A DNA stretch of 64,000 nucleotides from Balanoglossus misakiensis (GCA_040954595.2 CM082584.2:2077344-2141343), one strand, 5' to 3'. Shown: positions 29,446-64,000, counted from the stretch's first letter. The notes: generated by a model from the letters alone, not told the origin. Numbers and translations: made by a program.

Positions 29446-32400
29446 GGGGGCACAAGCGCCCTCAGGCGGCTTGTGCCCCCATTGTTATTGTTGGAATTTT
29501 TCTTTATTACGGGCCCAAGCCAAGCCAGGCTTGGGCCCGTATTGGTTTCGTTGGAATTTTTAGGGCCCAAGCCAAGCCAGGCTTGGGCCCTATTGGTTTC
29601 GCTGGTATTTTTCAGTCTTTCTTTCTTTCTTTCTTTCTTTCTTTATTCTTATGTCAATTCTTTGTCGCTCTAGATACCAGACACCACTGCAGGTACAGTT
29701 TTCAAACTTGCTACAGTGGTCAAGGTCAATAAGTAGTCGTGCATTGAACCCATGAATTTTTAATTAGTCACGTGACATGGCGGCCATATTGGATTTTCTG
29801 AAAAAATGCAAATCTCAGATCTCAGAAACTACAAGTCAGATCGACTTCAAATTTGGCGTGCAGGTAGACTACCTTCTGTTAATCATTTTTGTAATTGGAA
29901 ATTATGCTGACAAAGTTGCAGTTTTTTTGCTACAATTTTTTTTCTGAAATCTGGCTTAAATTTCAAAAATCTTCTTCTCCAGAACCAGTGATAACCGAGA
30001 CACGGGGTTTGCGGTATGTGGTCAACTAACTGATGTCTATCAAGTTTGCGAAGATCATTGTGATTGGTCAAAGATTACGGCGGCCATATTGGATTTTCGA
30101 AAAACCCTAGTAAAATTTCAAAAATCTTCTTCTCAAGAACCGGCGATAACCGAGTCACAAGATTTGGTGTGTGTGGTCATTAAACAGATGTCTAACAAGT
30201 TTGTGAAGGGGAATGTGATTGGTCGAAGATTATGGCGGCCATATTGGATTTTGAGAAAAACGATTAAAAAGAAAAAATTCCCTTTGTAGCCTAAAAATTA
30301 ATAGCACAGAAATTATTTTTATGGATATGAATCATCATATGCCAAGAATAAGCTCTAAATATTTTGGTAATTTTGGCAATGACCTTTGACCTACTTTTGA
30401 CGCATCATTTTTCTGCATATCTAATTCCAGGCTAACCAATAGGGCTATACGTTTGGTTTTTGATGTATGTGGATTTGTATGTGATCAAAAAATGTTGCTA
30501 CTTTCATGACCCCTTTGACCTCTGCTGACCTCATTAAATATGCACATACCTAATTACAGGTGAACCAATAGACCTAGAGGTTTTGTTTTTGTTATTCATG
30601 GACCAGTATGGGGTAAAACTATTTTGCCCAAATGTTGGGTGACCTCGGGTGACCTTTGACCTACTTTTGCATATCTTGACATCCACAGCAGATACAGCCT
30701 TGGCGTTTAGAGGTATGGGGCCATAATGAAAAGCCAAAGTTTTGGGTCACCTGTGACACCTGCTTAACTCATTATTTATGTGTATACCTAATTCTGGGCT
30801 AACCAAAAGGGCTAGAGATCTGGTTTTTGTTGGACATGGACCACTATAGGTCACAATTTTCTGCCCAAATTGTGGGTGACCTCTGGGTGACCTTTGACCT
30901 ACTTAACACTATATCAACACCAATAATAGATATAACCTTGATATTTTATGGGGTAAAACACAGCATTATGTTTCTACTCATTAATTATGTGCATATCTAA
31001 TAATCAGATCAGATAATAGAGCTTGGGCCCGGACAATGCTGCTTGCAGCTTTAATACTTTCTTTCTTTCTTTATTCTTGTGTCAATTCTTTGACCCACGA
31101 GATCTCAGACACCGCTGCAGGTACACTTCTGAAACTTGCTACAGTGGTCAAGGTCAATGAGTAGTCGTGCATTGAACCCTTGAATTTTTAATTAGTCACG
31201 TGACCTGGCGGCCATCTTGGATTTTCTGAAAAAATGCAAATCTCAGATCTCAGAAACTACAAGTCAGATCGACTTCAAATTTGGCAAGCTGGTAGACTAC
31301 CTTCTGCCCATCATTTTTGTAATTAGAAATTATGCTGACAAAGTTGCAGTTTTTTGCTACAATTTTTTTTCTGAAATCTGGCTTAAATTTAAAAAATCTT
31401 CTTCTCCAGAACCAGTGAAAACCAAGACACGGGGTTTTGGGTATGTGGTCACCTAACTGATGTCTATCAAGTTTGCGAAGATCATTGTGATTGGTCGAAG
31501 ATTATGGCGGCCATATTGGATTTTCGTAAAACCCTAGTAAAATTTCAAAAATCTTCTTCTCAAGAACCGGCGATAACTGAGTCACAAGATTTGGTGTGTG
31601 TGGTCATTAAACAGATGTCTATCAAATTTGCGAAGAGGAATGTAATTGGTCGAAGATTATGGCGGCCATATTGGATTTTGTGAAAAACAATTAAAAAGTA
31701 AAAATTCCCTTTCTAGCCTAAAAATTGATAGCACAGACATTCTTTTTATGGATATGAATCATCATATGCCAAGAATAAGCTATAAATATTTTGGTAATTT
31801 TGGCAATGACCTTTGACCTACTTTTGACGCATCATTGTTCTGCATATCTAATTCCAGGCTACCCAATAGGGCTATAAGTTTGGTTTTTGATGTATGTGGA
31901 TTTGTATGTGATCAAAAAATTTTGCTACTTTTCATGACCCCTTTGACCTCTGGTGACCTCATTAAATATGCGCATACCTAATTAATGATCAACCAATAGA
32001 CCTTAGAGGTTTTGTTTTTGTTATACATGGACCAGTATGGGGTCAAAATATTTTGCCCAAATGTTGGGTGACCTCGGGTGACCTTTGACCTACTTTTGCA
32101 TATCTCGACATCCACACCAGATACAGCCTTGGCGTTTGGAGGTATGGGGCCATAATGAAAAGCCAAAGTTTTGGGTCACCTGTGACACCTGCTTTACTCA
32201 TTATTTATGTGCATACCTAATTCCGGGCTAACCAAAAGGGCTAGATGTCTGGTTTTTGTTGGACATGGACCACTATGGGTCAAAATTTTCTGCCCAAATT
32301 TTGGATGAACTCAGATGACCTTTGACCTACTTTTGCATATATCGGCATCCAAAGCAGGTACAGTCTTGGCATTTGGAGGTATGGGGCCATAATGAAAAGC

Positions 32401-35400
32401 CAAAGTTTTGGGTCACCTGTGACACCTGCTTTATGCATTATTTATGTGCATACCTAATTCCGGGCTAACCAAAAGGGCTAGAGGTCTGGTTTTTGTTGGA
32501 CATGGACCACTATGGGTCAAAATTTTCTGCCCAAATTTTGGGTGACCTCAGATGACCTTTGACCTACTTAACACTATATCAACACCAAACATAGATATAA
32601 CCTTGATATTTCATGGGATAAAACACAGCATTATGTTTCTACTCATTAATTATGTGCATATCTAATAATCAGATCAGATAATAGAGCTTGGGCCCGGACA
32701 ATGCTGCTTGCAGCTTTAATTACGGGCCCAAGCCAAGCCAGGCTTGGGCCCGTATTGGTTTTGTTGGAGTTTTTAGGGCCCAAGCGCAAGCAAGCGCTTG
32801 GGCCCTATTGGTTTCGTTGGAATTTTTAGGGACCAAGCCAAGCCAGGCTTGGGCCCTATTGGTTTCGTTGGTATTTTTCAGTCTTTCTTTCTTTAGGGCC
32901 CAAGCGCATACCAGCGCTTGGGCCCTATTGGTTTCGTTGGGGTTTTTAGGGCCCAAGCGCATACCAGCGCTTGGGCCCTATTGGTTTCGTTGGGGTTTTT
33001 CTGTCTTTCCTTCTTTCTTCTTTCTTCTTCTTTCTTTATTCTTGTGTCAATTCTTTGTCGCTCTAGATCTCAGACACCACTGCAGGTACACTTCTCAAAC
33101 TTGCTACAGTGGTCAAGGTCAATGAGTAGATGTGCATTGAACCCTTGAATTTTTAATTAGTCACGTGACCTGGCGGCCATATTAGATTTTCTGAAAAAAT
33201 GCAAATCTCAGATCTCAGAAACTACAAGTCAGATCGACTTCAAACTTGGTGTGCAGGTAGTCTACCTTCTACCCATCATTTTTGTAATTGGATATTTTGC
33301 TGTCAATGTTGCAGTTTTTTTGCTACAGTTGTTTTTCTGAAATCTGGTCAAAATTTCAAAAATCTTCTTCTCCAGAACCGGCGATAACCGAGTCACGCGG
33401 TTTGGGGTATGTGGTCACCAAACTGAGGTCTATCAAGTTTGCGAAGATCATTGTGATTGGTCGAAGATTATGGCGGCCATATTGGATTTTCGAAAAACCC
33501 TAGTAAAATTTCAAAAATCTTCTTCTCAAGAACCGGCGATAACCGAGTCACAAGATTTGGTGTGTGTGGTCATTAAACAGATGTCTATCAAGTTTGCGAA
33601 GATCATTGTGATTGGTCGAAGATTTTGGCGGCCATATTGGATTTTGTGAACAACGATTAAAAAGTAAAAATTCTGTTTCTAGCCTAAAAATTGATAGCAC
33701 AGAAATTCTTTTTATGGATATGAATCATCATATGACAAGAATAAGCTATAAATATTTTGGTAATTTTGGCAATGACCTTTGACCTACTTTTGACGCATGA
33801 TTTTTCTGCATATCTAATTCTAGGCTAACCAATAGGGCTATAAGTTTGGTTTTTGATGTATGTGGATTTGTATGTGATCCAAAAATTTTGCTACTTTTCA
33901 TGACCCCTTTGACCTCTCCTGACCTCATTAAATATGCACATACCTAATTACAGATGAACCAATAGACCTAGAGGTTTGGTTTTTGTTGGACATGGACCAG
34001 TATTGGGTCAAAATATTTTGCCCAAATGTTGGGTGACCTCGGGTGACCTTTGACCTACTTTTGCATATCTCGACATCCACAGCAGATACAGCCTTGGCGT
34101 TTGGAGGTATGGGGCCATAATGAAAAGCCAACGTTTTGGGTCACCTGTGACACCTGCTTAACTCATTAATTATGTGCATACCTAATTCTAGGCTAACCAA
34201 AAGGGCTAGAGGTCTGGTTTTTGTTGGACATGGACCACTATGGGTCAAAATTTTCTGCCCAAATTTTGGGTGACCTCAGATGACCTCTGACGTACTTAAC
34301 ACAATATCAGCACCAAACATAGATATAACCTTGATATGTCATGGGATAAAACACAGCATTATGTTTCTACTCATTAATTATGTGCAGATCAGATAATAGA
34401 GCTTGGGCCCGGACAATGCTGCTTGCAGCTTTAATTCTTTCTTTCTTTCTTTCTTTCTTTCTTTATTCTTGTGTCATTTCTTTGTCGCTCTAGATCTCAG
34501 ACACCGCTGCAGGTACACTTCTCAACCTTGCTACAGTGGTCAAGGTCAATGGGTAGTCGTGCATTGAACTCTTGAATTTTTAATTAGTCACGTGACATGG
34601 CGGCCATATTGGATTTTCTGAAAAAATGCAAATCTCAGATCTCAGAAACTACAAGTCAGATTTACTTCAGATTTGGTGTGCTGGTAGTGTACCTTCTGCC
34701 CATCATTTTTGTAATTGGATATTTTGCTGTCAATGTTGCAGTTTTTTTGCTACAATTTTTTTTCTGAAATCTGGTCAAAATTTCAAAAATCTTCTTCTCC
34801 AGAACTGGCGATAACCGAGTCACGCGGTTTGGGGTATGTGGTCACCAAAGTGAGGTCTATCAAGTTTGCGAAGATCATTGTGATTGGTCGAAGATTATGG
34901 CGGCAATATTGGATTTTCGAAAAACCCTAGTAAAATTTCAAAAATCTTCTTCTCAAGAACCGGCGATAACTGAGTCACAAGATTTGGTGTGTGTGGTCAT
35001 TAAACAGATGTCTATCAAGTTTGCGAAGATGAATGTGATTGGTCAAAGATTATGGCGGCCATATTGGATTTTGTGAAAAACGATTAAAAAGTAAAAATTC
35101 CCTTTTCAGCCTAAAAATTGATAGCACATAAATTCTTTTTATGGATATGAATCTTCTTATAACAAGAATAAGCTATAAATATTTTGGTAATTTTGGCAAT
35201 GACCTTTGACCTACTTTTGACGCATCAATTTTCTGCATATCTAATTCCAGGCTAACCAATAGGGCTATAAGTTTGGTTTTTGATGTATGTGGATTTGTAT
35301 GTGATCAAAACATTTTGCTACTTTTCATAACCCCTTTGACCTCTGTTGACCTCATTAAATATGCACATACCTAATTAATGATGAACCAATAGACCTAGAG

Positions 35401-35783
35401 GTTTTGTTTTTGTTATACATGGACCAGTATGGGGTCAAAATATTTTGCCCAAATGTTGGGTGACCTCGGGTGACCTTTGACCTACTTTTGCATATCTCGA
35501 CATCCACAGCAGATACAGCCTTGGCGTTTGGAGGTATGGGGCCATAATGAAAAGCCAAAGTTTTGGGTCACCTGTGACACCTGCTTAACTCATTATTTAT
35601 GTGCATACCTAATTCCGGGCTAACCAAAAGGGGTAGAGATCTGGTTTTTGTTGGACATGGAACACTATGGGTCAAAATTTTCTGCCCAAATTTTGGGTGA
35701 CCTCTGGGTGACCTTTGACCTACTTAACACTATATCAACACCAAACATAGATATAACCTTGATATTTCATGGGATAAAACACA

Positions 35784-36687
35784 TTATCACATGAACTGGC
35801 CCTGATCACCACCTGTGTGACGTAGACCAGGACAGATCAAAAATCCTGATCACCCCTGTGTTACGTCATCAACCGGAACTATTTCCACCGATTCGCCGTA
35901 GCTTTGTTGTCAAACAGAAACAGTACGTGTAGCGCGCGGCATTTACAATACAGAAATGAAATAAAAAAATTACGGTTCCATGACAATAACGCTTTGTAAG
36001 CTCAAAACAGAAAGGTGGAATTTGGAAAGAAGACAGTCGACGCAACGATCATGGACGATCGTGGCTGTCAAAGTTTTGGGTCAGGTGTACATAGCCTAGG
36101 CTAGGCGCAAGTCCGGTACGTTCCGAGTCGAATCAGCGTGGGGAATTGTTTCGAGCCAGTTCAGCGTGACGACTGAACCTCTCTATTGCACCGGTCAACG
36201 AAATGTATAAGACGTGGCAACAGGTTGCAGTAAAATTGTTAGAGAATCGATTACATTTGTGTAAGGCCGAACTTCGAGCGAACGGAACTCAACGGGACGA
36301 CTTGTTGGGAGATTTTATGAATGATCAGCGATAGTTCACCATTTGCGTATATGCAAATGATGAACTATCGCTGATCATTCATAAAATCTCCCAACATATA
36401 TCTCCTGGGGGACATAATCCCGCTCAGTAAAATACGACACCGCTCCAAAATTGTTGCAAGGTACTGAATTGTTTTAGTCCTGCCTCTTCTAACGAAAAAT
36501 AAGAAGACTGTTCATGTGATAAATATATAATCCCATGATATCTTTCTTTGTTTAACGTCATCGTATACTCGTGGTTTTCGCGGAAGCGTACAACTTCTCG
36601 CCTGCGGCTCGAAGTTGCACTGCTCCGCGAAAACCACTCGTATACGATGACGTCAAACAAAGAAAGATATCATGGGATTATATGTAA
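35784..36687. mobile_element. Unclassified ~0.9-kb non-coding insertion (TTA...TAA ends, no clear TSD) inside a HINE body
   Basis: Interrupts the conserved AAAACACA|GCATTATG; 13-bp inverted repeats TTATCACATGAAC (35784-35796 / 36510-36522); then a ~160-bp foldback 36525-36683. Confidence 0.75.
36303..36396. repeat. 94-bp spacerless palindrome
   Basis: 47-bp arms TGTTGGGAGATTTTATGAATGATCAGCGATAGTTCA...; 2 mismatches, no loop. Confidence 0.9.
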
Positions 36688-37417
36688 GCATTATGTTTCT
36701 TCTCATTAATTATGTGCATATCTAATAATCAGATCAGATAATAGAGCTTGGGCCCGGACAATGCTGCTTGCAGCTTTAATTCTTTCTTTATTCTTATGTC
36801 AATTCTTTGTCGCTCTAGATCTCAGACACCACTGCAGGTACAGTTTTCAAACTTGCTACAGTGGTCAAGGTCAATGAGTAGTCGTGCATTGAACCCATGA
36901 ATTTTTAATTAGTCACGTGACCTGGCGGCCATATTGGATTTTCTGAAAAAATGCAAATCTCAGATCTCAGAAACTACAAGTCAGATTGACTTCAAATTTG
37001 GCGTGCAGGTAGAATACCTTCTGTCAATCATTTTTGTAATTGGAAATTATGCTGACAAAGTTGCAGTTTTTTTGCTACAATTTTTTTTCTGAAATCTGGC
37101 TTAAATTTCAAAAATCTTCTTCTCCAGAACCGGTGATAACCGAGACACGGGGTTTAGGGTATGTGGTCACCTAACTGATGTCTATCAAGTTTGCGAAGAT
37201 CATTGTGATTGGTCGAAGATTACGGCGGCCATATTGGATTTTCGAAAAACCCTAGTAAAATTTCAAAAATCTTCTTCTCAAGAACCGGCGATAACCGAGT
37301 CACAAGATTTGGTGTGTGTGGTCATTAAACAGATGTCTAACAAGTTTGCGAAGGGGAATGTGATTGGTCGAAGATTATGGCGGCCATATTGGATTTTGTG
37401 AAAAACGATTAAAAAGA

Positions 37418-40400
37418 AATTAAAGCTGCAAGCAGCATTGTCCGGGCCCAAGCTCTATTATCTGATCTTATTATTAGATATGCACATAATTAATGAGTAG
37501 AGACATAATGCTGTGTCTTATGCCATGAAATATCAAGGTTATATCTATGTTTTGTGGTGATATAGTGTTAAGTAGGTCAAAGGTCACCCAGAGGTCAACC
37601 ACAATTTGGGCAGAAAATTTTGACCCATAGTGGTCCATGTCCAACAAAAACCATGACCTCTAGCCCTTTTGGTTATCCCAGAATTACGTATGCACATAAA
37701 TAATGAGTTAAGCACGTGTCACAGGTGACCCAAAACTTTGGCTTTTCATTATGGCCCCATACCTCCAAACGCCAAGGCTGTATCTGCCGTAGATGTCGAG
37801 ATATGCAAAAGTAGGTCAAAGGTCACCCGAGGTCACCCAACATTTGGGCAAAATATTTTGACCCCATACTGGTCCATGTATAACAAAAACAAAACCTCTA
37901 GGTCTATTGGTTCATCATTAATTAGGTATGCGCATATTTAATGAGGTCACCAGAGGTCAAAGGGGTCATGAAAAGTAGCAAAAATTTTTGATCACATACA
38001 AATCCACATACATCAAAAACCAAACTTATAGCCCTATTGGTTAGCCTGGAATTAGATATGCAGAAAAATGATGCGTCAAAAGTTGGTCAAAGGTCATTGC
38101 CAAAATTACCAAAATATTTATAGCTTATTCTTGTCATATGATGTTTCATATCCGTAAAAAGAATTTCTGTGCTATCAATTTTTAGGCTAGAAAGGGAATT
38201 TTTACTTTTTAATCGTTTTTCACAAAATCCAATATGGCCGCCATAATCTTTGACCAATCACATTCCTCTTCGCAAACTTGATAGACATCTGTTTAATGAC
38301 CACACACATCAAATCTTGTGACTCAGTTATCGCCGGTTCTTGAGAAGAAGATTTTTGAAATTTTACTAGGTTTTTTTTTAAATCCAATATGGCCGCCACA
38401 ATCTTCGACCAATCACAATGATCTTCGCAAACTTGATAGACCTCAGCTTGGTGACCACATACCCCAAACCGCGTGACTCGGTTATCGCCGGTTCTGGAGA
38501 AGAAGATTTTTGAAATTTTGACCAGATTTCAGAAAAACAACTGTAGCAAAAAAACTGCAACATTGACAGCAAAATATCCAATTACAAAAATGATGGGCAG
38601 AAGGTAGACTACCGGCACACCAAATTTGAAGTCGATCTGACTTGTAGTTTCTGAGATCTGAGATTTGCATTTTTTCAGAAAATCCAATATGGCCGCCATG
38701 TCACGTGACTAATTAAAAATTTAAGAGTTCAATGCACGACTACCCATTGACCTTGACCATTGTAGCAAGTTTGAGAAGTGTACCTGCAGCGGTGTCTGAG
38801 ATCTAGAGCGACAAAGAAATGACAGAAGAATAAAGAAAGAAAGACAGAATTAAAGCTGCAAGCAGCATTGTCCAGGCCCAAGCTCTATTATCTGATCTGA
38901 TTATTAGATATGCATATAATTAATGAGTAGAAACATAATGCTGTGTTTTATTCCATGAAATATCAAGGTTATATCTATGTTTGGTGTTGATATAGTGTTA
39001 AGTAGGTCAAAGGTCACCCAGAGGTCACCCATAATTTTGGCAGAAAATTTTGACCCATAGTCGTCCATGTCCAACAAAAACCAGACCTCTAGCCCTTTTG
39101 GTTAGCCCGGAATTAGGTATGCACATAAATAATGAGTTAAGCAGGTGTCACAGGTGACCCAAAACTTTGGCTTTTCATTATGGCCCCATACCTCCAAACA
39201 CCAAGGCTGTATCTGCTGTGGATGTCGAGATATGCAAAAGTAGGTCAAAGGTCACCCGAGGTCACCCAACATTTGGGCAAAATATTTTGACCCCATACTG
39301 GTCCATGTATAACAAAAACAAAACCTCTAGGTCTATTGGTTCATCATTAATTAGGTAAGCGCATATTTAATGAGGTCACCAGAGGTCAAAGGGGTCATGA
39401 AAAGTAGCAAAATTTTTTGATCACATACAAATCCACATACATCAAAAAACAAACTTATAGCCCTATTGGTTAGCCTGGAATTAGATATGCAGAAAAATGA
39501 TTCGTCAAAAGTAGGTCAAAGGTCATTGCCAAAATTACCAAAATATTTATAGCTTATTCTTGTCATATGATGATTCATATCCATAAAAAGAATTTCTGTG
39601 CTATCAATTTTTAGGCTAGAAAGGGAATTTTTACTTTTTAATCATTTTTCACAAAATCCAATATGGCCGCCATAATGTTCGACCAATCACATTCCTCTTC
39701 GCAAACTTGATAGACATCTGTTGAATGACCACACACACAAAATCTTGTGACTCGGTTATCGCCGGTTCTTGAGAAGAAGATTTTTGAAATTTTACTATGG
39801 TTTTTCGAAAATCCAATATGGCCGCCATAATCTTCGACCAATCACAATGATCTTCGCAAACTTGATAGACATCAGTTAGGTGACCACATACCCCAAACCC
39901 CGTGTCTCGGTTATCACCGGTTCTGGAGAAGAAGATTTTTGAAATTTAAGCCAGATTTCAGTAAAAAAATTGTAGCAAAAAAACTGCAACATTGACAGCA
40001 TAATTTCCAATTACAAAAATGTTTGACAGAAGGTAGTCTACCTGCACGCCAAATTTGAAGTCGATCTGACTTGTAGTTTCTGAGATCTGAGATTTGCATT
40101 TTTTCAGAAAATCCAAGATGGCCACCAGGTCATGTGACTAATTAAAAATTCATGGGTTCAATGCACGACTCCTCATTGACCTTGACCACTGTAGCAAGTT
40201 TGAGAACTGTACCTGCAGTGGTGTCTGAGATCTAGAGCGACAAAGAATTGACAGAAGAATAAAGAAAGAAGAAAGAAAGACAGATTAAAGCTGCAAGCAG
40301 CATTGTCCGGGCCCAAGCTCTATTATCTGATCTGATGCTGATATAGTGTTAAGTAGGTCAAAGGTCACCCGAGGTCACCCAACATTTGGGCAAAATATTT

Positions 40401-43400
40401 TGACCCCATACTGGTCCATGTATAACAAAAACAAAACCTCTAGGTCTATTGGTTCATCTGTAATTAGGTATGTGCATATTTAATGAGGTCAGCAGAGGTC
40501 AAAGGGGTCATGAAAAGTAGCAAAATTTTTTGATCACATACAAATCCACATACATCAAAAACCAAAATGATAGCCTTAAAGGTTAGCCTGGAATTAGATA
40601 TGCAGAAAAATGATGCGTCAAAAGTAGGTCAAAGGTCATTGCCAAAATTACCAAAATTTTTATAGCTTATTCTTGTTATATGATGATTCATATCCATAAA
40701 AAGAATTTCTGTGCTATCAATTTTTAGGCTAGAAAGGGACTTTTTACTTTTTAATCGTTTTTCACAAAATCCAATATGGCCGCCATAATCTTCGACCAAT
40801 CACATTCCTCTTCGCAAACTTGATAGACATCTGTTTATTGACCACACACACTAAATCTTGTGACTCAGTTATCGCCGGTTCTTGAGTAGAAGATTTTTGA
40901 AATTTTACTAGGGTTTTTCGAAAATCCAATATGGCCGCCATAATCTTCGACCAATCACAATGATCTTCGCAAACTTGATAGACCTCAGTTTGGTGACCAC
41001 ATTTCCCAAACCGCGTGACTCGGTTATCGTCGGTTCTGGAGAAGAAGATTTTTGAAATTTTGACCAGATTTCAGAAAAACAACTGTAGCAAAAAAACTGC
41101 AACATTGACAGCAAAATATCCAATTACAAAAATGATGGGCAGAAGGTACACTACCCGCACACCAAATCTGAAGTAAATCTGACTTGTAGTTTCTGAGATC
41201 TGAGATTTGCATTTTTTCAGAAAATCCAATATGGCCGCCATGTCACGTGACTAATTAAAAATTCAAGAGTTCAATGCACGACTACCCATTGACCTTGACC
41301 ACTGTAGCAAGTTTTAGAAGTGTACCTGCAGCGGTGTCTGAGATCTAGAGCGACAAAGAAATGACACAAGAAAAAAGAAAGAAAGACAGAATTAAAGCTG
41401 CAAGCAGCATTGTCCGGGCCCAAGCTCTATTATCTGATCTGATATTAGATATGCACATAATTAATGAGTAGAAACATAATGCTCTGTTTTATCCCATGAA
41501 ATATCAAGGTTATATCTATGTTTGGTGTTGATATAGTGTAAAGTAGGTCAAAGGTCTCCCAGGGGTCACCCACAATTTGGGCAGAAAATTTTGACCCATA
41601 GTGGTCAATGTCCAACAAAAACCAGACCTCTAGCCCGTTTGGTTAGCCTGGAATTAGGTATGCACATAAATAATGAATTAAGCAGGTGTCACAGGTGACC
41701 CAAAACTTTGGCTTTTCATTATGGCCCCATACCTCCAAACGCCAAGGCTGTATCTGCTGTGGATGTCGAGATATGCAAAAGTAGGTCAAAGGTCACCCAA
41801 GGTCACCCAACATTTGGGCAAAATATTTTGACCCCATACTGTATAACAAAAACAAAACCTCAAGGTCTATTGGTTCATCATTAATTAGGTATGTACATAT
41901 TTAATGAGGTCAGCAGAGGTCAAAGGGGTCATGAGAAGTAGCAAAATCTTTTGATCACATACAAATCCACATACATCAAAAACCAAACTTATAGCCCTAT
42001 TGGTTAGCCTGGAATTAGATATGCAGAAAAATGATGCGTCAAAAGTAGGTCAAAGGTCATTGCCAAAATTACCAAAATATTTATAGCTTATTCTTGTCAT
42101 ATGATGATTCATATCCATAAAAAGAATTTCTGTGCTATCAATTATTAGGCTAGAAAGGGAATTTTTACTTTTTAATCGTTTTTCACAAAATCCAATATGG
42201 CCGCCATAATCTTCGACCAATCACATTCATCTTCGCAAACTTGATAGACATCTGTTTAATGACCACACACACCAAATCTTGTGACTCGGTTATCGCCGAT
42301 TCTTGAGTAGAAGATTTTTCAAATTTTACTAGGGTTTTTCGAAAATCCAATATGGCCGCCATAATCTTGGACCAATCACTATGATCTTCGCAAACTTGAT
42401 AGACATCAGTTAGGTGACCACATACCCCAAACCCCGTGTCTCGGTTATCACCGGTTCTGGAGAAGAAGATTTTTGAAATTTAGGCCAGATTTCAGAAAAA
42501 AAATTGTAGCAAAAAAACGGCAACTTTGTCAGCATAATTTCCAATTACAAAAATGATGGGCAGAAGGTAGTCTACCAGCATGCCAAATTTGAAGTCGATC
42601 TGACTTGCAGTTTCTGAGATCTGAGATTTGCATTTTTTCAGAAAATCCAAGATGGCCGCCATGTCACGTGACTAATTAAGTATTCACAAGTCACTGCACA
42701 TCTACTCATTGACCTTGACCACTGTAGCAAGTTTGAGAACTGTACCTGCAGCGGTGTTTGAGATCTAGAGCGATAAAGAATGGAACCAAGAATAAAGAAA
42801 GAAAGAAAGACAGAAAAACCCCAGCGAAACCAATACGGGCCCAAGCCTGGCTTGGCTTGGGCCCGTAAAAACCCCAACGAAAGGCTAGTTATACTTTGCG
42901 AAACAACGAAACGGCGAAACGACGAAACCATTATTAAAATAGGGGCCAGTCATCAAGACGGTGGCGTATGATTTTTTAAAAAGTTTCCAAATTAAAACTT
43001 AAGCGAGCCAAGAAAACTACAGGTCAGATAAATTGTTTTCTCGGAAATTCAACATTAGAATCAAATTTGGCGTTGGAAACAAACGGCGGGTCGCCAGTTC
43101 CTGGTCTGCGGCCTGGTACTATGTAGTGGTAGAGTCGACGTCGTGTGCGCGCAAACGATTCATGCCAAACTGCTACATATACACAGTGAATATACGCGCG
43201 CGCACAACGAAACCACAAAAGATCGAAACCTCAAAATGCGGCAGCAACTGACACTATTTCCTTAAATACCACAAGGCGGGGAGGCATGAATTGCAATTAA
43301 GATAATAAAGAAATTTCGACAATGATACTGTGTTGTGTGAGTTACATGTGTTTCTATATATAACTACTACTCTTACCCCCCATCAGTGTTTGACCCTCGA

Positions 43401-51667: not shown

Positions 51668-53128
51668 AGGGCCCAAGCCCAGCAGGCTTGGGCCCTATTG
51701 GTATTACTGGGGTTTTTCTTCTACTTCTTCTTCTTTTTCTTCTTCTGTCATTTTCTTTGGCGAGGTAGATCTGGAAAACTGCTAAACCTACCAATTTCAA
51801 ACTTGGCACAATGGTGCAGGCCAATGAGAGCTAGTGCAGTACCCTTGTGAATGTTTAATTAGTCACGTGACCTGATGACCATATATGGGCAAAATTTTCA
51901 AATCCGCCTTATTTGCATATGAATGGAGATATCACAATTCTTTTAGCAACTTTTGCGGACCATGTGGTCAGTGTCCTACATGCCAAATGTCAAGGCCATT
52001 GGCCATGCCAATTTTGAGAAGAAGATTTGTAAGTATTATTTTCCATATTTTTTGACCAAGCCATGGGCCTATACTTTACATAGTAAAGCTATGACCACAT
52101 ATTATTTTGGATAAATATGCATACATATCTCAAAATCTGTTAGGCCGATCATCTCCAACTTTGGTGTGCAGCAAGCCTAGCATTTGTCAATAATTTTAAG
52201 CAGAAAAAAATAATATGAAAAATCGACAGATTTTTTTATATTAATTTGTTTATTAAATTTATACCTTTGCTTATACCTCTATGGTTAAGCTATGTCCATG
52301 TCTTATTGTGGAATTCTGGTCAGTGCGATAGTCCTGTACAGTGAGTGTCTATTGGTCAGTGAGCACAATGGCACCAAAATAAAAGGCAAAATTTTAGGCT
52401 CACCTGTAACACCTGCTTAACTCATTAATTATGTGCATACCTAATTCTGGGCTAACTAAGAGGGCTAGATGTTTCGTTCTTGTGGGACATGGACCAGTAT
52501 AGGGCCAACATTTCTTGCCCAAATTTGGGGTGAACTCAGGTGACCTTTGACCTACTTTCCTATATCTCGGCATCCAGAGCAGGTACAGACTTGGCGTTTG
52601 GAGGGTTGGGACTAAAGTTGAAAAGCCAAAATAGGGGTCACCTGTGACACCTGCATATCTCATTAATTATGTGCATACCTAATTCCAGGCTAACCAATAG
52701 GGCTATAGGTTTTGTTTTTGTTGAACATGGACCAGTACAGGGTCAAAATTTCTTGCCCAAATTTTGCATGACCTCAGGTGACCTTTGACCTACTTAACCA
52801 GATCTTGGCATCGAGACCAGATACAGACTTGGCGTTTGGAGGGTTGGGACTAAAATTGAAAAGCCAAATTGGGGGGTCACCTGTGACACCTGCCTACCTC
52901 ATTAATTATGTGCATACCTAATTCCAGGTTAACCAATAGGGCTATAGGTTTGGTTTTTGTTGAACATGGACCAGTATAGGGTCAAAATTTCTTGCCCAAA
53001 TTTTGCATGAACTCAGGTGACCTTTGACCTACTTTACCATATCTTGGCATCCAGAGCAGATATGCTTATTGCTATGTTGCTATGTGCTATGTCGGCTTGG
53101 GCCCGCTATTGCTGCTTGCAGCTATATT
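51668..53128 (+). mobile_element. Divergent HINE-like family member
   Basis: Head AGGGCCCAAGCC-CAGCA-GGCTTGGGCCCT, (TTC)n microsatellite, largely unrelated 5' interior, related ~240-bp 3' repeats, tail GCTTGGGCCCGCTATTGCTGCTTGCAGCTATATTT. Confidence 0.82.
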
Positions 53129-56100
53129 TTATTCTTGTGTCAATTCTTCGGCCAACGAGATCTCTGAAACTACTGCAGGTACACTTCTCAAACTTGCTAC
53201 AATGGTCAAGGTCAATGAGTAGATGTGCAGTGACTTGTGAATACTTAATTAGTCACGTGACCTGGCGGCCATATTGGATTTTCTGAATAAATGCAAATCT
53301 CAGATCTCAGAAACTACAAGTCAGATCGACTTCAAATTTGGCATGCAGGTAGACTACCTTCTACCCATCATTTTTGTAATTGGAAATTTTGCTGTCAATG
53401 TTGCAGTTTTTTTGCTACAATTTTTTTTCTGAAATCTGGCTTAAATTTCAAAAATCTTCTTCTCCAGAACCGGTGATAACCGAGACACGGGGTTTGGGGT
53501 ATGTGGTCACCTAACTGATGTCTATCAAGTTTGCGAAGATCATTGTTATTGGTCGAAGATTATGGCGGCCATATTGGATTTTCGAAAAACCATAGTAAAA
53601 CTCCAAAAATCTTCTTCTCCAAAACGGGCGATGACTGAGTCGCAAGATTCGGGGAGTATGGTCACTACACTGATGTCTATAAAGTTTGCAAAGAGCATTG
53701 TGATTGGTCCAAGATTATGGCGGCCATATTGGATTTTGTAAAAAGCAGTGAAAAATTAAAATTCCTTTTTCTAGTCTAAAAATTGATAACATACAAATTC
53801 TTTTTATGGATATCAATCGTCATGTGACTAAAATATGTTAAAATTTTTTGGCGATTTTTCACATGACCTTTGACCTACTTATCACACGTTATTATTTCAG
53901 CATATCTAATTCCAGGCTAACCTATAGGGCTAAACGTTTGGTTTTTGATGCATGTGGATTAGTGTGTGATCAAAATATTTTGCTACTTTTCATGACCCCT
54001 TTGACCTCTGCTGACCTCATTAATTATGTGCATAGCTAATTACAGGCGAACCAATAGAGCTAGAGGTTTGGTTTTTGTTGGACATGGACCAGTATGGGAT
54101 CAAAATTTTTTGCCCAAATTTTGGATGACCTCTGGTGACCTTTGACCTACTTTCGCACATCTCAGCATCCAGAGCAGATACAGCGTTGGCATTTGGCAGG
54201 ATGGGACCAAAATGTAAAGCCACATTTTTGGGTCACCTGTGACACCTGTTGACCTCATTAAATATGCACATACCTAATTACAGCCGAACCAATAGAGCTA
54301 GAGTTTTGGTTTTTGTTGGACATTAACCAGTATGGGTCAAAAAAATGTGCCCAAATGTTGGGTGACCTCAGGTGACCTTTGACCTACTTCACCCTATTTC
54401 AGCAGCAAAAATACACACGTCCTTGTTATGTCATGAGATAATACACCCAATAGAAAATTATGTTTCTTTTCATTCATACTGTGCATATATAATTCGAGAT
54501 CAGCGCTTGGGCCCGACAATGCTGCTTGCAGCTTTAATTCTTTCTTTATTCTTATGTCAATCTTTGCTCTCCTAGATCTCTGAAACGGCTACAGGTACAC
54601 TTCTCAAACTTGCTACAGTGGTCAAGGTCAATGAGTAGATGTGCAGTGGCTTGTGAATATTTAATAAGTCACGTGACCTGGCGGCCATATTGGATTTTCT
54701 GAAAATCTTTAAATGGCTTCTTCTCAAAAACCACAGGGCCAATCAAGTTCAAATTTGGTGTATGGTACACATGTCCTCTGCCCTTCAAAGTTTGACAATA
54801 AAATCCTGAGCGGTCACGTGACTTTGGCCGCCATATTGGATTTTCGAAAAAGTACTGTAAAATCTTCAAAAATCTTCTTCTCCAGAACCGGCAATAACCG
54901 AGTCATGGGATTTAGGGTATGACATTACCTAACTGATGTCTATCAAGTTTGCGAAGAGCGTTGTGATTGGTCGAAGATTATGGCGGCCATATTGGATTTT
55001 GTAAAAACCAGCGAAAATTAAGAAATCATTTTTCTAGTCTAAAAATAGATAGCATACAAATTCTTTTTATGGATATGAGTCGTGATATGACTAGAATATG
55101 TTGCAAATATTTGGGAAATTTTCACATGACCTTTGACCTACTTTTTTAAGAACCTGCATATATGCATATATAGCTCATACTACGTGTTCTAAATGTACCA
55201 GAGTTCTGATTTTTGTGCACATTGGTATCATCCCTGCCAGGACCTACCCCAAATATTTTGGTAATTTTGGCAATGACCTTTGACCTACTTTTGACACATC
55301 ATTTTTTTCTGCATATCTAATTACAGGCTAACCTATAGGGCTATGATTTTGGTTTTTGATGTATGTGGATTTGTATGTGATCAAAAAATTTCGCTACTTT
55401 TCATGACCCCTTTGACCTCTGCTGACCTCATTAAATATGTGCATACCTAATTACAGATGAACCAATAGACCTAGAGGTTTGGTTTCTGTTGGACATGGAC
55501 CAGTATTGGGTCAAAACTTTTTGCCCAAATTTTGGGTGACCTCGGGTGACCTTTGACCTACTTTTGCATATCTCGACATCCACAGCAGATACAGCCTTGG
55601 CGTTTGAAGGTATGGGGCCATAATGAAAAGCCAAAGTTTTGGGTCACCTGTGACACGTGCTTAACTCATTATTTATGTGCATACCTAATTCCGGGCTAAC
55701 CAAAAGGGCTAGAGGTCTGGTTTTTGTTGGACATGGACCACTATGGGTCAAAATTTTCTGCCCAAATTTTGGGTGACCTTAGATGACCTTTGACCTACTT
55801 AACACTATATCAGCACCAAACATAGATATAACCTTGATATTTCATGGGATAAAACACAGCATTATGTTTCTACTCATTAATTATGTGCATATCTAATAAT
55901 CTGATCAGATAATAGAGCTTGGGCCCGGACAATGCTGCTTGCAGCTTTAATTATTACGGGCCCAAGCCAAGCCAGGCTTGGGCCCGTATTGGTTTCGTTG
56001 GGGTTTTTTAGGGCCCAAGCGCGCACAAGCGCTTGGGCCCTATTGGTTTCGTTGGAATTTTTAGGGCCCAAGCGCACGCAAGCGCTTGGGCCCTATTGGT

Positions 56101-59100
56101 TTCGTTGGAATTTTTAGGGCCCAAGCGCGCGCAAGCGCTTGGGCCCTATTGGTTTCGTTGGGGTTTTTCTTTCTTTCTTTTTTCTTGTGTCAAATTCTTC
56201 GGCCAACGAGATCTCTGAAACTACTGCAGGTACACTTCTCAAACTTGCTACAGTGGTCAAGGTCAATGAGTAGATGTGCAGTGACTTGTGAATACTTAAT
56301 TAGTCACGTGACCTGGCGGCCATATTGGATTTTCTGAAAAAATGCAAATCTCAGATCTCAGAAACTACAAGTCAGATCGACTTCAAATTTGGCATGCAGG
56401 TAGACTACCTTCTACCCATCATTTTTGTAATTGGATATTTTGCTGTCAATGTTGCAGTTTTTTTGCTACAATTTTTTTTCTGAAATCTGGCTTAAATTTC
56501 AAAAATCTTCTTCTCCAGAACCGGTGATAACCGAGACACGGGGTTTGGGGTATGTGGTCACCTAACTGATGTCTATCAAGTTTGCGAAGATCATTGTGAT
56601 TGGTCGAAGATTATGGCGGCCATATTGGATTTTCGAAAAACCATAGTTAAACTCAAAAAATCTTCTTCTCCAGAACGGGCAATGACTGAGTCGCAAGATT
56701 CGGGGAGTATGGTCACTATACTGATGTCTATCAAGTTTGCAAAGAGCATTGTGATTGGTCGAAGATTATGGCGGCCATATTGGATTTTGAAAAAAGCAGT
56801 AAAAAATTGAAATTCCTTTTTCTAGTCTAAAAATTGATAGCATACAAATTCTTTTTATGGATATCAATCGTCATGTGACTAAAATATGTTACAATTTTTT
56901 GGCGATTTTTCACATGACCTTTGACCTACTTATCACGCGTTATTATTTCTGCATATCTAATTCCAGGCTAACCTATAGGGCTAGACGTTTGGTTTTTGAT
57001 GAATGTGGATTAGTGTGTGATCAAAATATTTTGCTACTTTTCATGACCCCTTTGACCTCTGCTGACCTCATTAATTATGTGCATAGCTAATTACAGGCGA
57101 ACAAATAGAGCTAGAGGTTTGGTTTTTGTTGGACATGGACCAGTATGGGATCAAAATTTTTTGCCCAAATGTTGGGTGACCTCTGGCGACCTTTGACCTA
57201 CTTTCGCATATCTCAGCATCCAGAGCATATACAGCCATGGCATTTGGTACGATGGGACCAAAATGTAAAGCCACATTTGTGGGTCACCTGTGACACCTGC
57301 TGACCTCATTAAATATGCACATACCTAATTACAGGCGAACCAATAGAGCTATAGTTTTGGTTTTTGTTGGACATGGACCAGTATGGGTCAAAAAAAATTG
57401 CCCAAATGTTAGGTGACCTCAGGTGACCTTTGACCTACTTCACCCTATTTCAGCAGCAAAAATACACACGTCCTTGTTTTGTCATGAGATAATACATCCG
57501 ATAGAAAATTCTGTTTCTTCTCATTCATACTGTGCATATATAATTCGAGATCAGCGCTTGGGCCCGACAATGCTGCTCGCAGCTTTAATTCTTTCTTGCT
57601 TGCTTTCTTTCTTTCTTTCTTTATTCTTGTGTCAATTCTTCGGCCAACTAAATCTCTGAAACTACTGCAGGTACACTGCTCAAACTTGCTACAGTGGTCA
57701 AGGTCTATGAGTAGATGTGCAGTGACTTGTGAATACTTAATTAGTCACGTGACCTGGCGGCCATATTGGATTTTCTGAAAAAATGCAAATCTCAGATCTC
57801 AGAAACTACAAGTCAGATCGACTTCAAATTTGGCGTGCTGGTAGTATACCCTCTACCCATCATTTTTGTAATTGGATATTTTGCTGTAAATGTTGCAGTT
57901 TTTTTGCTACAATTTTTTTTCTGAAATCTGGCTTAAATTTCAAAAATCTTCTTCTCCAGAACCGGTGATAACCGAGACACGGGGTTTGGGGTATGTGGTC
58001 ACCTAACTGATGTCTATCAAGTTTGCGAAGATCATTGTGATTGGTCGAAGATTATGGCGGCCATATTGGATTTTCGAAAAACCATAGTTAAACTCCAAAA
58101 ATCTTCTTCTCCAGAACGGGCGATGACTGAGTCGCAAGATTCGGGGAGTATGGTCACTACAATGATGTCTATCAAGTTTGCAAAGAGCATTGTGATTGGT
58201 CGAAGATTATGGCGGCCATATTGGATTTTGTAAAAAGCAGTGAAAAATTGAAATTCCTTTTTCTAGTCTAAAAATTGATAGCATGCAAATTCTTTTGATG
58301 GATATCAATCGTCATGTGACTAAAATATGTTACAATTTTTTGGCGATTTTTCACATGACCTTTGACCTACATATCACACGTTATTATTTCAGCATATCTA
58401 ATTCCAGGCTAACCTATAGGGCTAGACTTTTGGTTTTTGATGCATGTGGATTAGTGTGTGATCAAAATATTTTGCTACTTTTCATGACCCCTTTGACCTC
58501 TGCTGACCTCATTAATTATGTGCATAGCTAATTACAGGCGAACCAATAGAGGTAGAGGTTTGGTTTTTGTTGGACACAGACCAGTATGGGATCAAAATTT
58601 TTTGCCCAAATGTTGCATGACCTCTGGTGACCTTTGACCTACTTTCGCATATCTCAGCATCCAGAGCAGATACAGCCTTGGCATTTGGTAGGATGGGACC
58701 AAAATGTAAAGCCACATTTTTGGGTCACCTGTGACACCTGCTGACCTCATTAAATATGCACATACCTAATTACAGGCGAACCAATAGAGCTAGAGTTTTG
58801 GTTTTTGTAGGACATGGACCAGTATGGGTCAAAAAAAATTGCCCAAATGTTGGGTGACCCCAGGTGACCTTTGACCTACTTCACCCTATTTAAGCAGCAA
58901 AAATACACACGTCCTTGTTATGTCATGAGATAATACATCCGATAGAAAATTCTGTTTCTTCTCATTCATACTGTGCATATATAATTCAAGATCAGCGCTT
59001 GGGCCCGACAATGCTGCTCGCAGCTTTAATTCTTTCTTTCTTTCTTTATTCTTGTGTCAATTCTTCGGCCAACTAAATCTCTGAAACTACTGCAGGTACA

Positions 59101-62100
59101 CTGCTCAAACTTGCTACAGTGGTCAAGGTCAATGAGTAGATGTGCAGTGACTTGTGAATACTTAATTAGTCACGTGACCTGGCGGCCATATTGGATTTTC
59201 TGGAAAAATGCAAATCTCAGATCTCAGAAACTACAAGTCAGATCGACTTCAAATTTGGCATGCAGGTAGACTACCTTCTACCCATCATTTTTGTAATTGG
59301 ATATTTTGCTGTCAATGTTGCAGTTTTTTTGCTACAATTGTTTTTCTGAAATATGGCTTAAATTTCAAAAATCTTCTTCTCCAGAACCGGTGATAACTGA
59401 GACACGGGGTTTGGGGTATGTGGTCACCTAACTGATGTCTATCAAGTTTGCGAAGATCATTGTGATTGGTCGAAGATTATGGCGGCCATATTGGATTTTA
59501 AAAAAAACACAGTTAAACTCCAAAAATCTTATTCTCCAGAACGGGCGATGACTGAGTGGCAAGATTCGGGTAGTACGGTCACTACACTGATGTCTATCAA
59601 ATTTCCAAAGAGCATTGTGATTGGTCGAAGATTATGGCGGCCATATTGGATTTTGTAAAAAGCAGTGAAAAATTGAAATTCCTTTTTCTAGTCTAAAAAT
59701 TGATAGCATAGCAATTCTTTTAATGGATATCAATCGTCATGTGACTAAAATATGTTACAATTTTGGGGGGATTTTTCACATGACCTTTGACCTACTTATC
59801 ACGCGTTAATATTTCAGCATATCTAATTCCAGGCTAACCTATAGGGCTAGACTTTTGGTTTTTGATGCATGTGGATTAGTGTGTGATCAAAATATTTTGC
59901 TACTTTTCATGACCCCTTTGACCTCTGCTGACCTCATTAATTATGTGCATAGCTAATTACAGGCGAACCAATAGAGCTAGAGGTTTGGTTTTTGTTGGAC
60001 ATTAACCAGTATGGGTCAAAAAAATGTGCCCAAATGTTGGGTGACCTCAGGTGACCTTTGACCTACTTCACCCTATTTCAGTAGCAAAAATACACACGTC
60101 CTTGTTATGTCATGAGATAATACACCCAATAGAAAATTATGTTTCTTTTCATTCATACTGTGCATATATAATTCGAGATCAGCGCTTGGGCCCGACAATG
60201 CTGCTTGCAGCTTTAATTAGGGCCCAAGCGCATACCAGCGCTTGGGCCCTATTGGTTTCGTTGGGGTTTTTCTTTCTTTCTTTCTTTCTTTATTCTTCTG
60301 TCAATTCTTTGTCGCTCTAGATCTCAGACACCGCTGCAGGTACACTTCTGAAACTTGCTACAGTGGTCAAGGTCAATAAGTAGTTGTGCATTGAACCCTT
60401 GAATTTTTAATTAGTCACGTGACCTGGCGGCCATATTGGATTTTCTGAAAAAATGCAAATCTCAGATCTCAGAAACTACAAGTCAGATCGACTTCAAATT
60501 TGGTGTGCATGTAGTCTACCTTCTACCCATCATTTTTGTAATTGGATATTTTGCTGTAAATGTTGCAGTTATTTTGCTACAATTTTTTTTCTGAAATCTG
60601 GCTTAAATTTCAAAAATCTTCTTCTCCAGAACCGGTGATAACTGAGTCACGCGGTTTGGGGTATGTGGTCACCTAATTGATGTCTATCAAGTTTGCGAAG
60701 ATCATTGTGATTGGTCGAAGATTATGGCGGCCATATTGGATTTTCGAAAAACAATAGTTAAACTCCAAAAATCTTCTTCTCCAGAACGGGCGATAACCGA
60801 GTCACAAGATTTGGTGTGTTTGGTCATTAAACAGATGTCTATCAAGTTTGCGAAGGGGAATGTGATTGGTCGAAGATTATGGCGGCCATATTGGATTTTG
60901 TGAAAAACGATTTAAAAGTAAAAATTCCTTTTCTAGCCTAAAAATTGATAGCACAGAAATTCTTTTTATGGATATGAATCATCATATGGCAAGAATAAGC
61001 TATAAATATTTTGGTAATTTTGGCAATGACCTTTGACCTACTTTTGACGCATCTTTTTTCTGCATATCTAATTCCAGGCTAACCAATAGGGCTATAAGTT
61101 TGGTTTTTGATGTATGTGGATTTGTATGTGATCAAAAATTTTTGCTACTTTTCATGACCCCTTTGACCTCTGCTGACCTCATTAATTATGTGCATAGCTA
61201 ATTACAGATGAACCAATAGACCTAGAGGTTTTGTTTTTGTTATACATGGACCAGTATGGGGTCAAAATATTTTGCCCAAATGTTGGGTGACCTCGGGTGA
61301 CCTTTGACCTACTTAACACTATATCAGCATCAGATCAGATAATAGAGCTTGGGCCCGGACAATGCTGCTTGCAGCTTTAATTCTTTCTTTATTCTTATGT
61401 CAATCTTTGCTCTCCTAGATCTCTGAAACGGCTACAGGTACACTTCTCAAACTTGCTACAGTGGTCAAGGTCAATGAGTAGATGTGCAGTGGCTTGTGAA
61501 TATTTAATTAGTCACGTGACCTGGCGGCCATATTGGATTTTCTGAAAATCTTTAAATGGCTTCTTCTCAAAAACCACAGGGCCAATCAAGTTCAAATTTG
61601 GTGTATGGTACACATGTCCTCTGCCCTTCAAAGTTTGACAATAAAATCCTGAGCGGTCACGTGACTTTGGCCGCCATATTGGATTTTCGAAAAAGTACTG
61701 TAAAATCTTCAAAAATCTTCTTCTCCAGAACCGGCAATAACCGAGTCATGGGATTTAGGGTATGACATTACCTAACTGATGTCTATCAAGTTTGCGAAGA
61801 GCGTTGTGATTGGTCGAAGATTATGGCGGCCATATTGGATTTTGTAAAAACCAGCGAAAATTAAGAAATCATTTTTCTAGTCTAAAAATAGATAGCATAC
61901 AAATTCTTTTTATGGATATGAGTCGTGATATGACTAGAATATGTTGCAAATATTTGGGAAATTTTCACATGACCTTTGACCTACTTTTTTAAGAACCTGC
62001 ATATATGCATATATAGCTCATACTACGTGTTCTAAATGTACCAGAGTTCTGATTTTTGTGCACATTGGTATCATCCCTGCCAGGACCTACCCCAAATATT

Positions 62101-64000
62101 TTGGTAATTTTGGCAATGACCTTTGACCTACTTTTGACACATCATTTTTTTCTGCATATCTAATTACAGGCTAACCTATAGGGCTATGATTTTGGTTTTT
62201 GATGTATGTGGATTTGTATGTGATCAAAAAATTTCGCTACTTTTCATGACCCCTTTGACCTCTGCTGACCTCATTAAATATGTGCATAGCTAATTACAGG
62301 CGAACCAATAGAGCTAGAGTTTTGGTTTTTGTTGGACATTAACCAGTATGGGTCAAAAAAATGTGCCCAAATGTTGGGTGACCTCAGGTGACCTTTGACC
62401 TACTTATCACGCGTTAATATTTCAGCATATCTAATTCCAGGCTAACCTATAGGGCTAGACTTTTGGTTTTTGATGCATGTGGATTAGTGTGTGATCAAAA
62501 TATTTTGCTACTTTTCATGACCCCTTTGACCTCTGCTGACCTCATTAATTATGTGCATAGCTAATTACAGGCGAACCAATAGAGCTAGAGGTTTGGTTTT
62601 TGTTGGACATGGACCAGTATGGGATCAAAATTTTTTGCCCAAATTTTGGGTGACCTCTGGTGACCTTTGACCTACTTTCGCATATCTCAGCATCCAGAGC
62701 AGATACAGCCATGGCATTTGGCAGGATGGGACCAAAATGTAAAGCCACATTTTTGGGTCACCTGTGACACCTGCTGACCTCATTAAATATGCACATACCT
62801 AATTACAGGCGAACCAATAGAGCTACAGTTTTGGTTTTTGTTGGACATGGACCAGTATGGGTAAAAAAAAAATTGCCCAAATGTTGGGTGACCTCAGGTG
62901 ACCTTTGACCTACTTCACCCTATTTCAGCAGCAAAATACACACATCTTTGTTATGTCATGAGATAATACATCCGATAGAAAATTATGTTTCTTCTCATTC
63001 ATACTGTGCATATATAATTCAAGATCAGCGCTTGGGCCCGATAATGCTGCTCGCAGCTTTAATCTTTCTTTCTTTCTTTCTTTATTCTTGGTTCATTTCT
63101 TTCTCGCCTTAGATCTCAGACACCGCTGCAGGTACAGTTCTCAAACTTGCTACAGTGGTCAAGGTTAATGAGTAGATGTGCAGTGACTTGTGAATACTTA
63201 ATTAGTCACGTGACATGGCGGCCATATTGGATTTTCTGAAAAAATGCAAATCTCAGATCTCAGAAACTACAAGTCAGATCGACTTCAGATTTGGCGTGCT
63301 GGTAGTATACCCTCTGCCCATCATTTTTGTAATTGGATATTTTGCTGTCAATGTTGCAGTTTTTTTGCTACAGTTGTTTTTCTGAAATCTGGTCAAAATT
63401 TCAAAAATCTTCTTCTCCAGAACCGGCGATAACCGAGTCACGCCGTTTGGGTTATGTGGTCACCTAACTGATGTCTATCAAGTTTGCGAAGATCATTGTG
63501 ATTGGTCGAAGATTATGGCGGCCATATTGGATTTTCGAAAAACCATAGTAAAACTTCAAAAATCTTCTTCTCCAGAACGGGCAATAACCGAGTCACAAAA
63601 TTTGGTGTGTGTGGTCATTAAACGGATGTCTATCAAGTTTGCGAAGGGGAATGTGATTGGTCGAAGATTATGGCGGCTATATTGGATTTTGTGAAAAACG
63701 ATTAAAAAGTAAAAATTCCTTTTCTAGCCTAAAAATTGATAGCACAGAAATTCTTTTTATGGATATGAATCATCATATGACAAGAATAACCTATAAATAT
63801 TTTGGTAATTTTGGCAATGACCTTTGACCTACTTTTGACGAATCATTTTTCTGCATATCTAATTCCAGGCTAACCAATAGGGCTATAAGTTTGGTTTTTG
63901 ATGTATGTGGATTTGTATGTGATCAAAAAATGTTGCTACTTTTCATGACCCCTTTGACCTCTGGTGACCTCATTAAATATGCATATACCTAATTACAGAT

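Follow-up and report, generated by a model that had tools for sequence, protein, structure and literature searches.

How does one locus come to hold 45 kb of repeated DNA in which the 5' ends of many units lie far from the rest of them? We address this for a 64,000-nt stretch of Balanoglossus misakiensis (GCA_040954595.2 CM082584.2:2077344-2141343; hereafter the window), in which a long interspersed element (LINE) is interrupted by an array of a ~1.45-kb non-coding element resembling the HINEs, that is, non-autonomous elements of the Helentron type. A sequence-only reading of positions 29446–64000 had proposed that the copies are inserted one into another, each host copy being split into a 5' piece (its head) and a distant body and tail, paired in last-in-first-out (LIFO) bracket order. 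We show here that the array is a Russian-doll stack and that its nesting is real. The model holds, and its support is stronger than that first offered; we consider it highly probable that the stack was built by repeated insertion of the element into its own T-run site.

Results

The unit and the layout of the array

The parse of 18967–64000 yields 29 heads, 29 tails and 30 body starts; the head scan gave 31 matches, two of which were dropped as palindromes read in reverse. Nine heads are physically contiguous with their own bodies. The first nest (18967–29342, plus strand) is balanced, with seven heads, seven bodies and seven tails. On the plus strand the second nest comprises 14 heads, 13 tails and one open body; it encloses an inverted nest (37418–50856, minus strand) of eight heads and nine body-tail units. 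The figure of ~30 copies given in the sequence-only reading is reached only by adding the first nest, the interval that it covered holding 22 heads and 23 body starts.

An intact copy runs from a 5' hairpin through a T5 run, a CTTT microsatellite, the body, a 3' subterminal repeat and a 5-bp palindrome to a final TTTAATT. The hairpin has the form GGGCCCAAGC-loop-GCTTGGGCCC, its repeat and complementary inverted repeat being present in all 29 heads, and none of 200 shuffles was as stable as the three heads that were folded (z from -4.2 to -6.0). The 3' subterminal repeat is inverted relative to the 5' one and reads GCTTGGGCCC in 28 of 29 tails, with one change in the remaining tail. GCTGC-T(T/C)-GCAGC, which the search pattern required, lies near the 3' end of all 29 tails and varies only in its loop. 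Within 29446–33100 the microsatellite and central repeats comprise (TCTT)7, a 155-bp repeat in two copies and a 237-bp repeat in 2.4 copies. Two of the 15 stop-to-stop frames of at least 120 aa fall in the array, both across stacked heads and both outside the Pfam-scanned set. This anatomy makes the unit likely to be a HINE of the rolling-circle HLE2 type, which, judging from the resemblance to its family, would move through a joined-end circle. Exact-pattern scans of metagenome contigs with two head patterns returned no match, and an autonomous RepHel(+endonuclease) element sharing the termini was not seen. Three short (~1.1 kb) copies that lack one internal repeat (46547–47660, 40287–41389 and 60257–61378) form a subfamily, and the body at 31056–32717 carries an extra internal repeat.

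On the plus strand, the outermost head of the second nest, a (29446–29508, GGGGGCAC type), has its body and tail outside the window. Element b (29509–32721; ACGGG head, body 31056–32721) holds the intact element c (29562–31055). Element d (32722–55952; ACGGG head, body 54540–55952) is followed inwards by e (32775–54539; CAAGC-loop head, GGCCAAC-type body 53128–54539), which carries the intact divergent element i (51668–53127) within its microsatellite, by f (32828–51640; CAGTC head, body 36782–37417 plus 50857–51640), and by g (32895–36781), which holds the intact element h (32948–34436). The inverted nest lies within the body of f, at the only antisense GGAATTTTT site of the element. Further downstream, element j (55956–64000; ACGGG head, true body from 63064) runs off the window, and k (56010–63063; body 59032–60002 plus 62611–63063) holds l (56063–59031) and the intact m (56116–57590). 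The three bases ATT at 55953–55955 are one unit of the (ATT)n linker of head a, flanked by two elements inserted into that linker. All three elements directly in head a (29509, 32722, 55956) are of the ACGGG type and this junction is deep in contigs, so that the (ATT)n linker may be a subfamily-specific target.

A local duplication and the corrected pairing

Two pairings had been put forward as proof of LIFO order. For the first, heads 29562 and 32828 were said to share a motif, and GGTATTTTTCAGTC indeed occurs at 29604 and 32870 only; likewise, the five variants described as private to the bodies at ~29620 and 36782+50857 are each confined to these two of the 30 bodies. The bodies of c and f share six exclusive columns and differ by 2.1%. 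The shared variants are thus real, but head 29562 is contiguous with its body, and only the pairing of 32828 with 36782 tests LIFO. That pairing arises in 9,924 of 50,000 random order-valid trials, about one in five.

For the second, the ACGGG heads 32722 and 55956 had been matched with the only two CAATCTTTGCTCTCC-type bodies. CAATCTTTGCTCTCC is confined to 54558 and 61401, as stated, but the pairing of 55956 with 61383 is a coincidence produced by duplication. The ACGGG heads number four, not two (29509, 32722, 55956 and, on the minus strand, 42866), and the remaining two are paired with other bodies. What was taken for a body at 61383 belongs to a 1,121-bp copy, with two differences, of 54324–55445 (plus strand), a source that comprises the 3' end and tail of e plus the first 906 bp of the body of d: 54324–54539 and 60003–60218 differ at one position, as do 54540–55445 and 61383–62288, which include a 779-bp exact match. 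Since the tail of e and the body start of d are neighbours only through nesting, 61383 is not the body of head 55956, and since the near-identity crosses a junction between different elements, the two CAATCTTTGCTCTCC bodies are not independent. The copy (60003–60218 and 61383–62288) sits in a templated insertion within k (60003–62610, plus strand) and was split later by the intact element n (60219–61382), inserted at the copied junction. The distal part of the insertion, after 62288 and up to 62610, is a 100-bp junction copy followed by an exact 222-bp repeat (62389–62610 = 59781–60002) that closes the event. Without the duplicated block, the body of k measures 1,421 bp and shows 49–58 mismatches (3–4%) with its neighbours. 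We infer a repair-type origin with template switches; such a duplication would have followed the nesting and added one false tail-body junction to element k.

With the block removed, k closes at 63063, head j takes the body at 63064, and head a is bodiless within the window, which leaves two heads, j and a, open at 64000. A single base separates head j from the intact ACGGG head at 42866, and among intact copies it is the body of the latter that comes closest to the 63064 body (5.4%, with the next at 11.4%). The public contigs used here come from three runs (X1, X2 and X3) of one sample, possibly the source of the assembly; the empty LINE site, the LINE continuation and the continuation of an a-type head that they show all lie outside the nest of the window. 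One X3 contig with an a-type head continues as (ATT)n CTTCTTCTTCCGAG..., a continuation with no match in the window at up to two mismatches, and it explains the stray ATT at 55953–55955. As had been predicted, head 29446 is unclosed, and the GCTTGTGCCCC tail looked for in the window is absent. The original assignment, with 61383 as the body of head 55956 and 63064 as that of head 29446, has the merit of balancing the plus-strand counts (14 heads, 14 body starts) and of giving both CAATCTTTGCTCTCC bodies ACGGG heads. We nevertheless give it scarcely any weight: the near-identity continues across the upstream tail junction, heads 32722 and 55956 differ at two of ~50 bases while their supposed bodies differ at one of 906, removal of the block restores a normal body 3–4% from its neighbours, and the contig shows an a-type head continuing differently from the 63064 body.

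Heads and bodies agree under LIFO pairing

When all heads are tested, LIFO congruence supports the nesting model. For the body assigned to each split head, we took the intact copy with the nearest body and scored how close the split head is to the head of that copy. The nine contiguous heads served as ground truth, and in the null an open head was drawn at random in valid order; head a, which overstates the gain from the corrected parse when kept, was left out of these scores. With 100, 150 and 300 bp of body, respectively, LIFO was matched or beaten in 23, 25 and 116 of 20,000 draws for all nests under the corrected parse, and in 110, 92 and 102 of 20,000 for 29446–64000 alone. The uncorrected parse gave 25, 83 and 1,210 of 20,000 for all nests and 106, 325 and 1,282 for the same interval. 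In all 18 settings the rank correlation between head and body distances was higher under LIFO than under first-in-first-out pairing and than the null mean, with 2–163 of 1,500 shuffles as good; first-in-first-out pairing did no better than random and was rejected. All four non-contiguous GGCCAAC bodies are assigned CAAGC-loop heads, as in intact copies (344 of 50,000 by chance). We used distance tests rather than separate head trees because heads hold too few sites; in body trees, c groups with f, most CAAGC heads fall together and, over the 5' 300 bp, j groups with the intact ACGGG copy (support 0.94). The claim that head and body subtypes independently support nesting thus survives on the whole set of heads, although one of its two cited proofs is a later local duplication. 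A rule of one CTGT per element, which by eye held five times out of five in the first nest, fails for g and for the fifth inverted head, and was abandoned (~3,600 of 50,000 in a formal, weak test).

Neighbouring bodies are not alike. Across the 24 adjacent pairs available from 27 of the 30 bodies, differences range from 2.9 to 25.5% (median 8.5%), and adjacent bodies are no closer than in shuffled orders (1,129 of 10,000). Homogenisation of neighbouring units of the satellite type was not seen in these pairs, the minimum being 2.9%, and tandem amplification is therefore rejected as the main builder of the array.

A probable target site within the element itself

TT ends the left flank of all 29 insertions. 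Insertion at T^T without target duplication is demonstrated at the LINE site of the first nest, where a contig supplies the empty site; the right end of the second nest lies outside the window. Two insertions are in the LINE and 27 are self-insertions, 26 of which fall within a ~25-bp zone behind the 5' hairpin: 15 follow GG(A/G/T)(A/G)T5-6 in a head, seven lie in the microsatellite behind the T-run of the head, and four come after a tail occupying the same place, in one case the duplicated tail. The 27th is the inverted nest, which sits behind GGAATTTTT in the antisense strand of a body. Over both strands an intact copy has 37 runs of at least four T and 19 of at least five, with one match to GG[AGT][AG]T5 per strand, and these two matches are the two sites used. 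In the contigs, the head that follows an a-type head is of the ACGGG, AGGG or a type, and junctions of the form tail-ATT-ACGGG occur too; stacking therefore takes place elsewhere in this genome as well.

The LINE that hosts the array

The 5' part of the LINE open reading frame 2 (17338–18966, plus strand) contains the endonuclease domain (PF03372, E 5.7e-9), then the putative start of the reverse transcriptase (RT) region, and is broken by one stop and by frameshifts. An RT piece lies between the nests (29343–29445, plus strand; LVPIIKDK...NYRPIAL...VFEHI), ending in VFEHI as had been read; the window holds only the start of the RT region, which we recognise by its PIxK...YRPI motif. The LINE reads in frame across the first nest (...AIKVI then LVPIIKDK...). 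A 239-bp contig of run X1 covers 29340–29445 with one difference in 106, its upstream loose end matching 18934–18963, and so joins both LINE flanks without duplication. It continues past 29445 with a loose end that starts TACTTTCTCGTTGTGAGG, a continuation looked for in the window and absent from it. An uninterrupted LINE therefore exists, the first nest went in between Ts without target duplication, and the contig gives the sequence with which the LINE should resume behind the second nest. The predicted return of the LINE after the array is consistent with this contig, the right junction lying beyond 64000.

Other features were noted within the array and upstream of the LINE. A miniature inverted-repeat transposable element of 770 bp (42883–43653, strand unassigned) splits a head; it has 40-bp terminal inverted repeats, further internal inverted repeats and an 8-bp target duplication (TTTCGTTG), from the length of which it is presumably hAT-like. 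A foreign insertion of 905 bp (35784–36688) near the 3' end of g apparently combines an element bounded by short terminal inverted repeats with a palindromic piece of 160 bp, and it contains an internal palindrome of 94 bp. Upstream of the LINE, broken frames at 2483–5991 match DUF7869 (PF25273), possibly another transposon relic, and weak COR-A/COR-B (Roco-type) matches below the Pfam cut-offs at 15396–16682 (minus strand) suggest a host gene or pseudogene adjoining the LINE.

Relative ages of the copies

The relative chronology announced for the copies holds as a structural partial order, hosts before guests, and divergence lends it no independent support. Brackets leave siblings unordered, among them b, d and j inside a, and bracket order equals arrival order only if copies moved singly. 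The expectation that inner copies are younger and closer to consensus was not borne out: depth and private changes per kb are uncorrelated (rho 0.055, p 0.79) in 26 of 30 bodies, the divergent body at 51703, the two CAATCTTTGCTCTCC bodies and the body at 19237 being left out, and in 11 of 18 host-guest pairs it is the inner copy that has fewer private changes. In the inverted nest, the outermost unit shows 10 differences from a first-nest unit. Such near-identity across nests, together with the LINE piece at 1 of 106 from its contig, argues that the array likely grew fast from several co-active, mosaic subfamilies. If these were active together, depth would not be expected to track divergence. 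This pair, the opposite-orientation bodies at 26499–27923 and 37422–38847, lies 10 kb apart and may represent sister insertions, a local hop or a product of gene conversion.

Discussion

Based on the above data, we propose that single copies inserted again and again, by a rolling-circle route, into a preferred T-run ~50 bases behind the 5' hairpin of a resident copy. A trans-acting RepHel transposase, whose choice of site we infer from the array, would cut at T^T, favouring GG(A/G/T)(A/G)TTTT^T. Each insertion would split its host into a head and a body-tail and bring in a fresh copy of the site, so that the hot spot would renew itself and a pile of heads would build up in front of the bodies, in bracket order. 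Alternatively, heads and body-tail units could have been multiplied separately by unequal crossing-over or through rolling-circle concatemers, the bracket order then being due to chance. The one real local duplication, the runs of identical 53-bp heads, the single unbalanced nest and the Helitron arrays of plants in which many 5' ends go with one 3' end, mentioned in the available text of a review (PMC12628747), would all suit such tandem amplification. It is largely refuted, and we rate it as very improbable, by adjacent bodies at least 2.9% apart and no closer than shuffles, by the exact balance of the first nest and by LIFO congruence; moreover, among the long exact matches listed, only one extends well on both sides of a junction.

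It is also conceivable that some stacks formed elsewhere and moved whole by read-through of inner termini, in which case bracket order would not be local arrival order. Among transposed elements, Chellapan et al. observed some with several 5' termini and, in the text available, proposed this route (PMC5148889); junctions of head a with ACGGG and of tail, ATT and ACGGG recur in the contigs of run X2, with depths of 943 and 1,144 (sums, not copy numbers), and depth in the stack does not track private changes. Recurrent junctions are, however, also expected from a shared target, composites predict extra heads where the imbalance here is an extra tail, and the closest sister pair (26499–27923 and 37422–38847) has different neighbours, with 19 differences in 400 bp upstream. 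We therefore regard composites as improbable. Less easily set aside, though still unlikely in our view, is that the transposase binds the 5' hairpin or subterminal repeat of a resident copy and cuts the first adjoining T-run with no preference for target sequence. The microsatellite and tail junctions account for 11 of the 27 self-insertions, which lack the GG..T5 motif but adjoin a terminus, and neither LINE site has the motif; against this stands the inverted nest, a single event, ~700 bp from any terminus and at the sole antisense match.

Several observations weigh against nested self-insertion as we describe it, or against parts of it. The inverted nest has one tail more than heads, so that one of its units is an orphan. 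One head was probably lost there from a run of identical 53-bp heads; its first two heads (50550–50856, minus strand) are identical 53-mers, so that slippage or assembly collapse may account for the loss. Two of the four ACGGG heads (29509 and 32722) pair with bodies unlike that of the intact ACGGG copy, one first-nest CAAGC head is matched with a body lacking a GGCCAAC-type 5' end, and bodies are mosaics. The weakest settings of the congruence tests are not significant (163 of 1,500 in the rank test; 1,210–1,282 of 20,000 with the uncorrected parse at 300 bp), and the discrete rules, such as the CAAGC/GGCCAAC pairing, were, like the target motif, picked after viewing the data. The antisense mimic is one event, the continuation of the a-type head comes from a single contig, and the 3' hairpin, folded in two tails, is no more stable than shuffles (z 1.36 and 0.29). 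The internal junctions of the nest are spanned by no contig of the public runs, and the assembly is neither confirmed nor doubted thereby.

The element itself is of a known kind. As far as the available text of PMC4067079 and PMC7492417 describes them, HINE/DINE-1 elements, including oyster Cg_HINE, share with our unit a 5' subterminal repeat with a hairpin-forming inverted repeat followed by a microsatellite, central tandem repeats, a 3' subterminal repeat, insertion at TT without target duplication, and no coding capacity, and their short 3' palindrome is matched by our unit in sequence; a TT target is also given for HLE2 elements (PMC11417382, in part). Our unit differs in its subterminal repeat of 10–12 bp, at the short end of the published 11–15 bp, and in its deep site-specific self-nesting, which those two texts, to the extent available, do not describe. 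In Fusarium oxysporum, Helitron2 (FoHeli) copies have several 5' termini, for which Chellapan et al. proposed self-insertion (PMC5148889, available text). In both systems the terminal repeats are asymmetric, copies have gone in close to the 5' end of related ones, and 5' termini are stacked, but FoHeli shows two or few 5' termini with one 3' terminus, nesting being proposed as their source, whereas in the locus described here 29 heads and their matching body-tail units follow bracket order across 45 kb, with several subfamilies and one narrow target. According to the part of McGurk and Barbash available (PMC5932611), target preference gives rise to tandem dimers of transposable elements, which can seed satellites. 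There, as here, it turns independent insertions into a satellite-like array, but their site is host DNA and a target duplication separates the copies, which stand head to tail, whereas a site inside the element makes copies nest and parts heads from bodies. The review PMC12628747, in its accessible part, notes Helitron loci of oyster that are nested and shuffled, and arrays of plants that carry many 5' ends; self-nesting was not found in the available text of PMC12001565 or PMC8268682, and within the open full-text literature as available (subscription papers and supplements being outside this scope) we found no paper on deep bracket-ordered Helentron stacks. With self-insertion already published for fungi, the locus is a large and well-resolved example rather than a first.

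It also shows that bracket counting can mislead, one 1.1-kb duplication having both imitated a pair in favour of LIFO and displaced the partners of two heads. Taken together, the data are compatible with a wider reading to which we grant, tentatively, nearly an even chance of being right: Helentron-type elements would carry their own preferred target (GG-purine-TTTT^T) behind the 5' hairpin and so be capable of sequence-specific self-targeting, nested insertion alone would enlarge their arrays and so form satellite-like DNA in a way that differs from tandem amplification and may recur across animal genomes, and bracket order would record the co-active subfamilies. The array itself shows that tens of kilobases of satellite-like DNA can come from independent insertions. 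It also provides a natural read-out of target choice by Helitron2/Helentron elements, for which the literature, as far as available, gives only "TT" or "T-rich".

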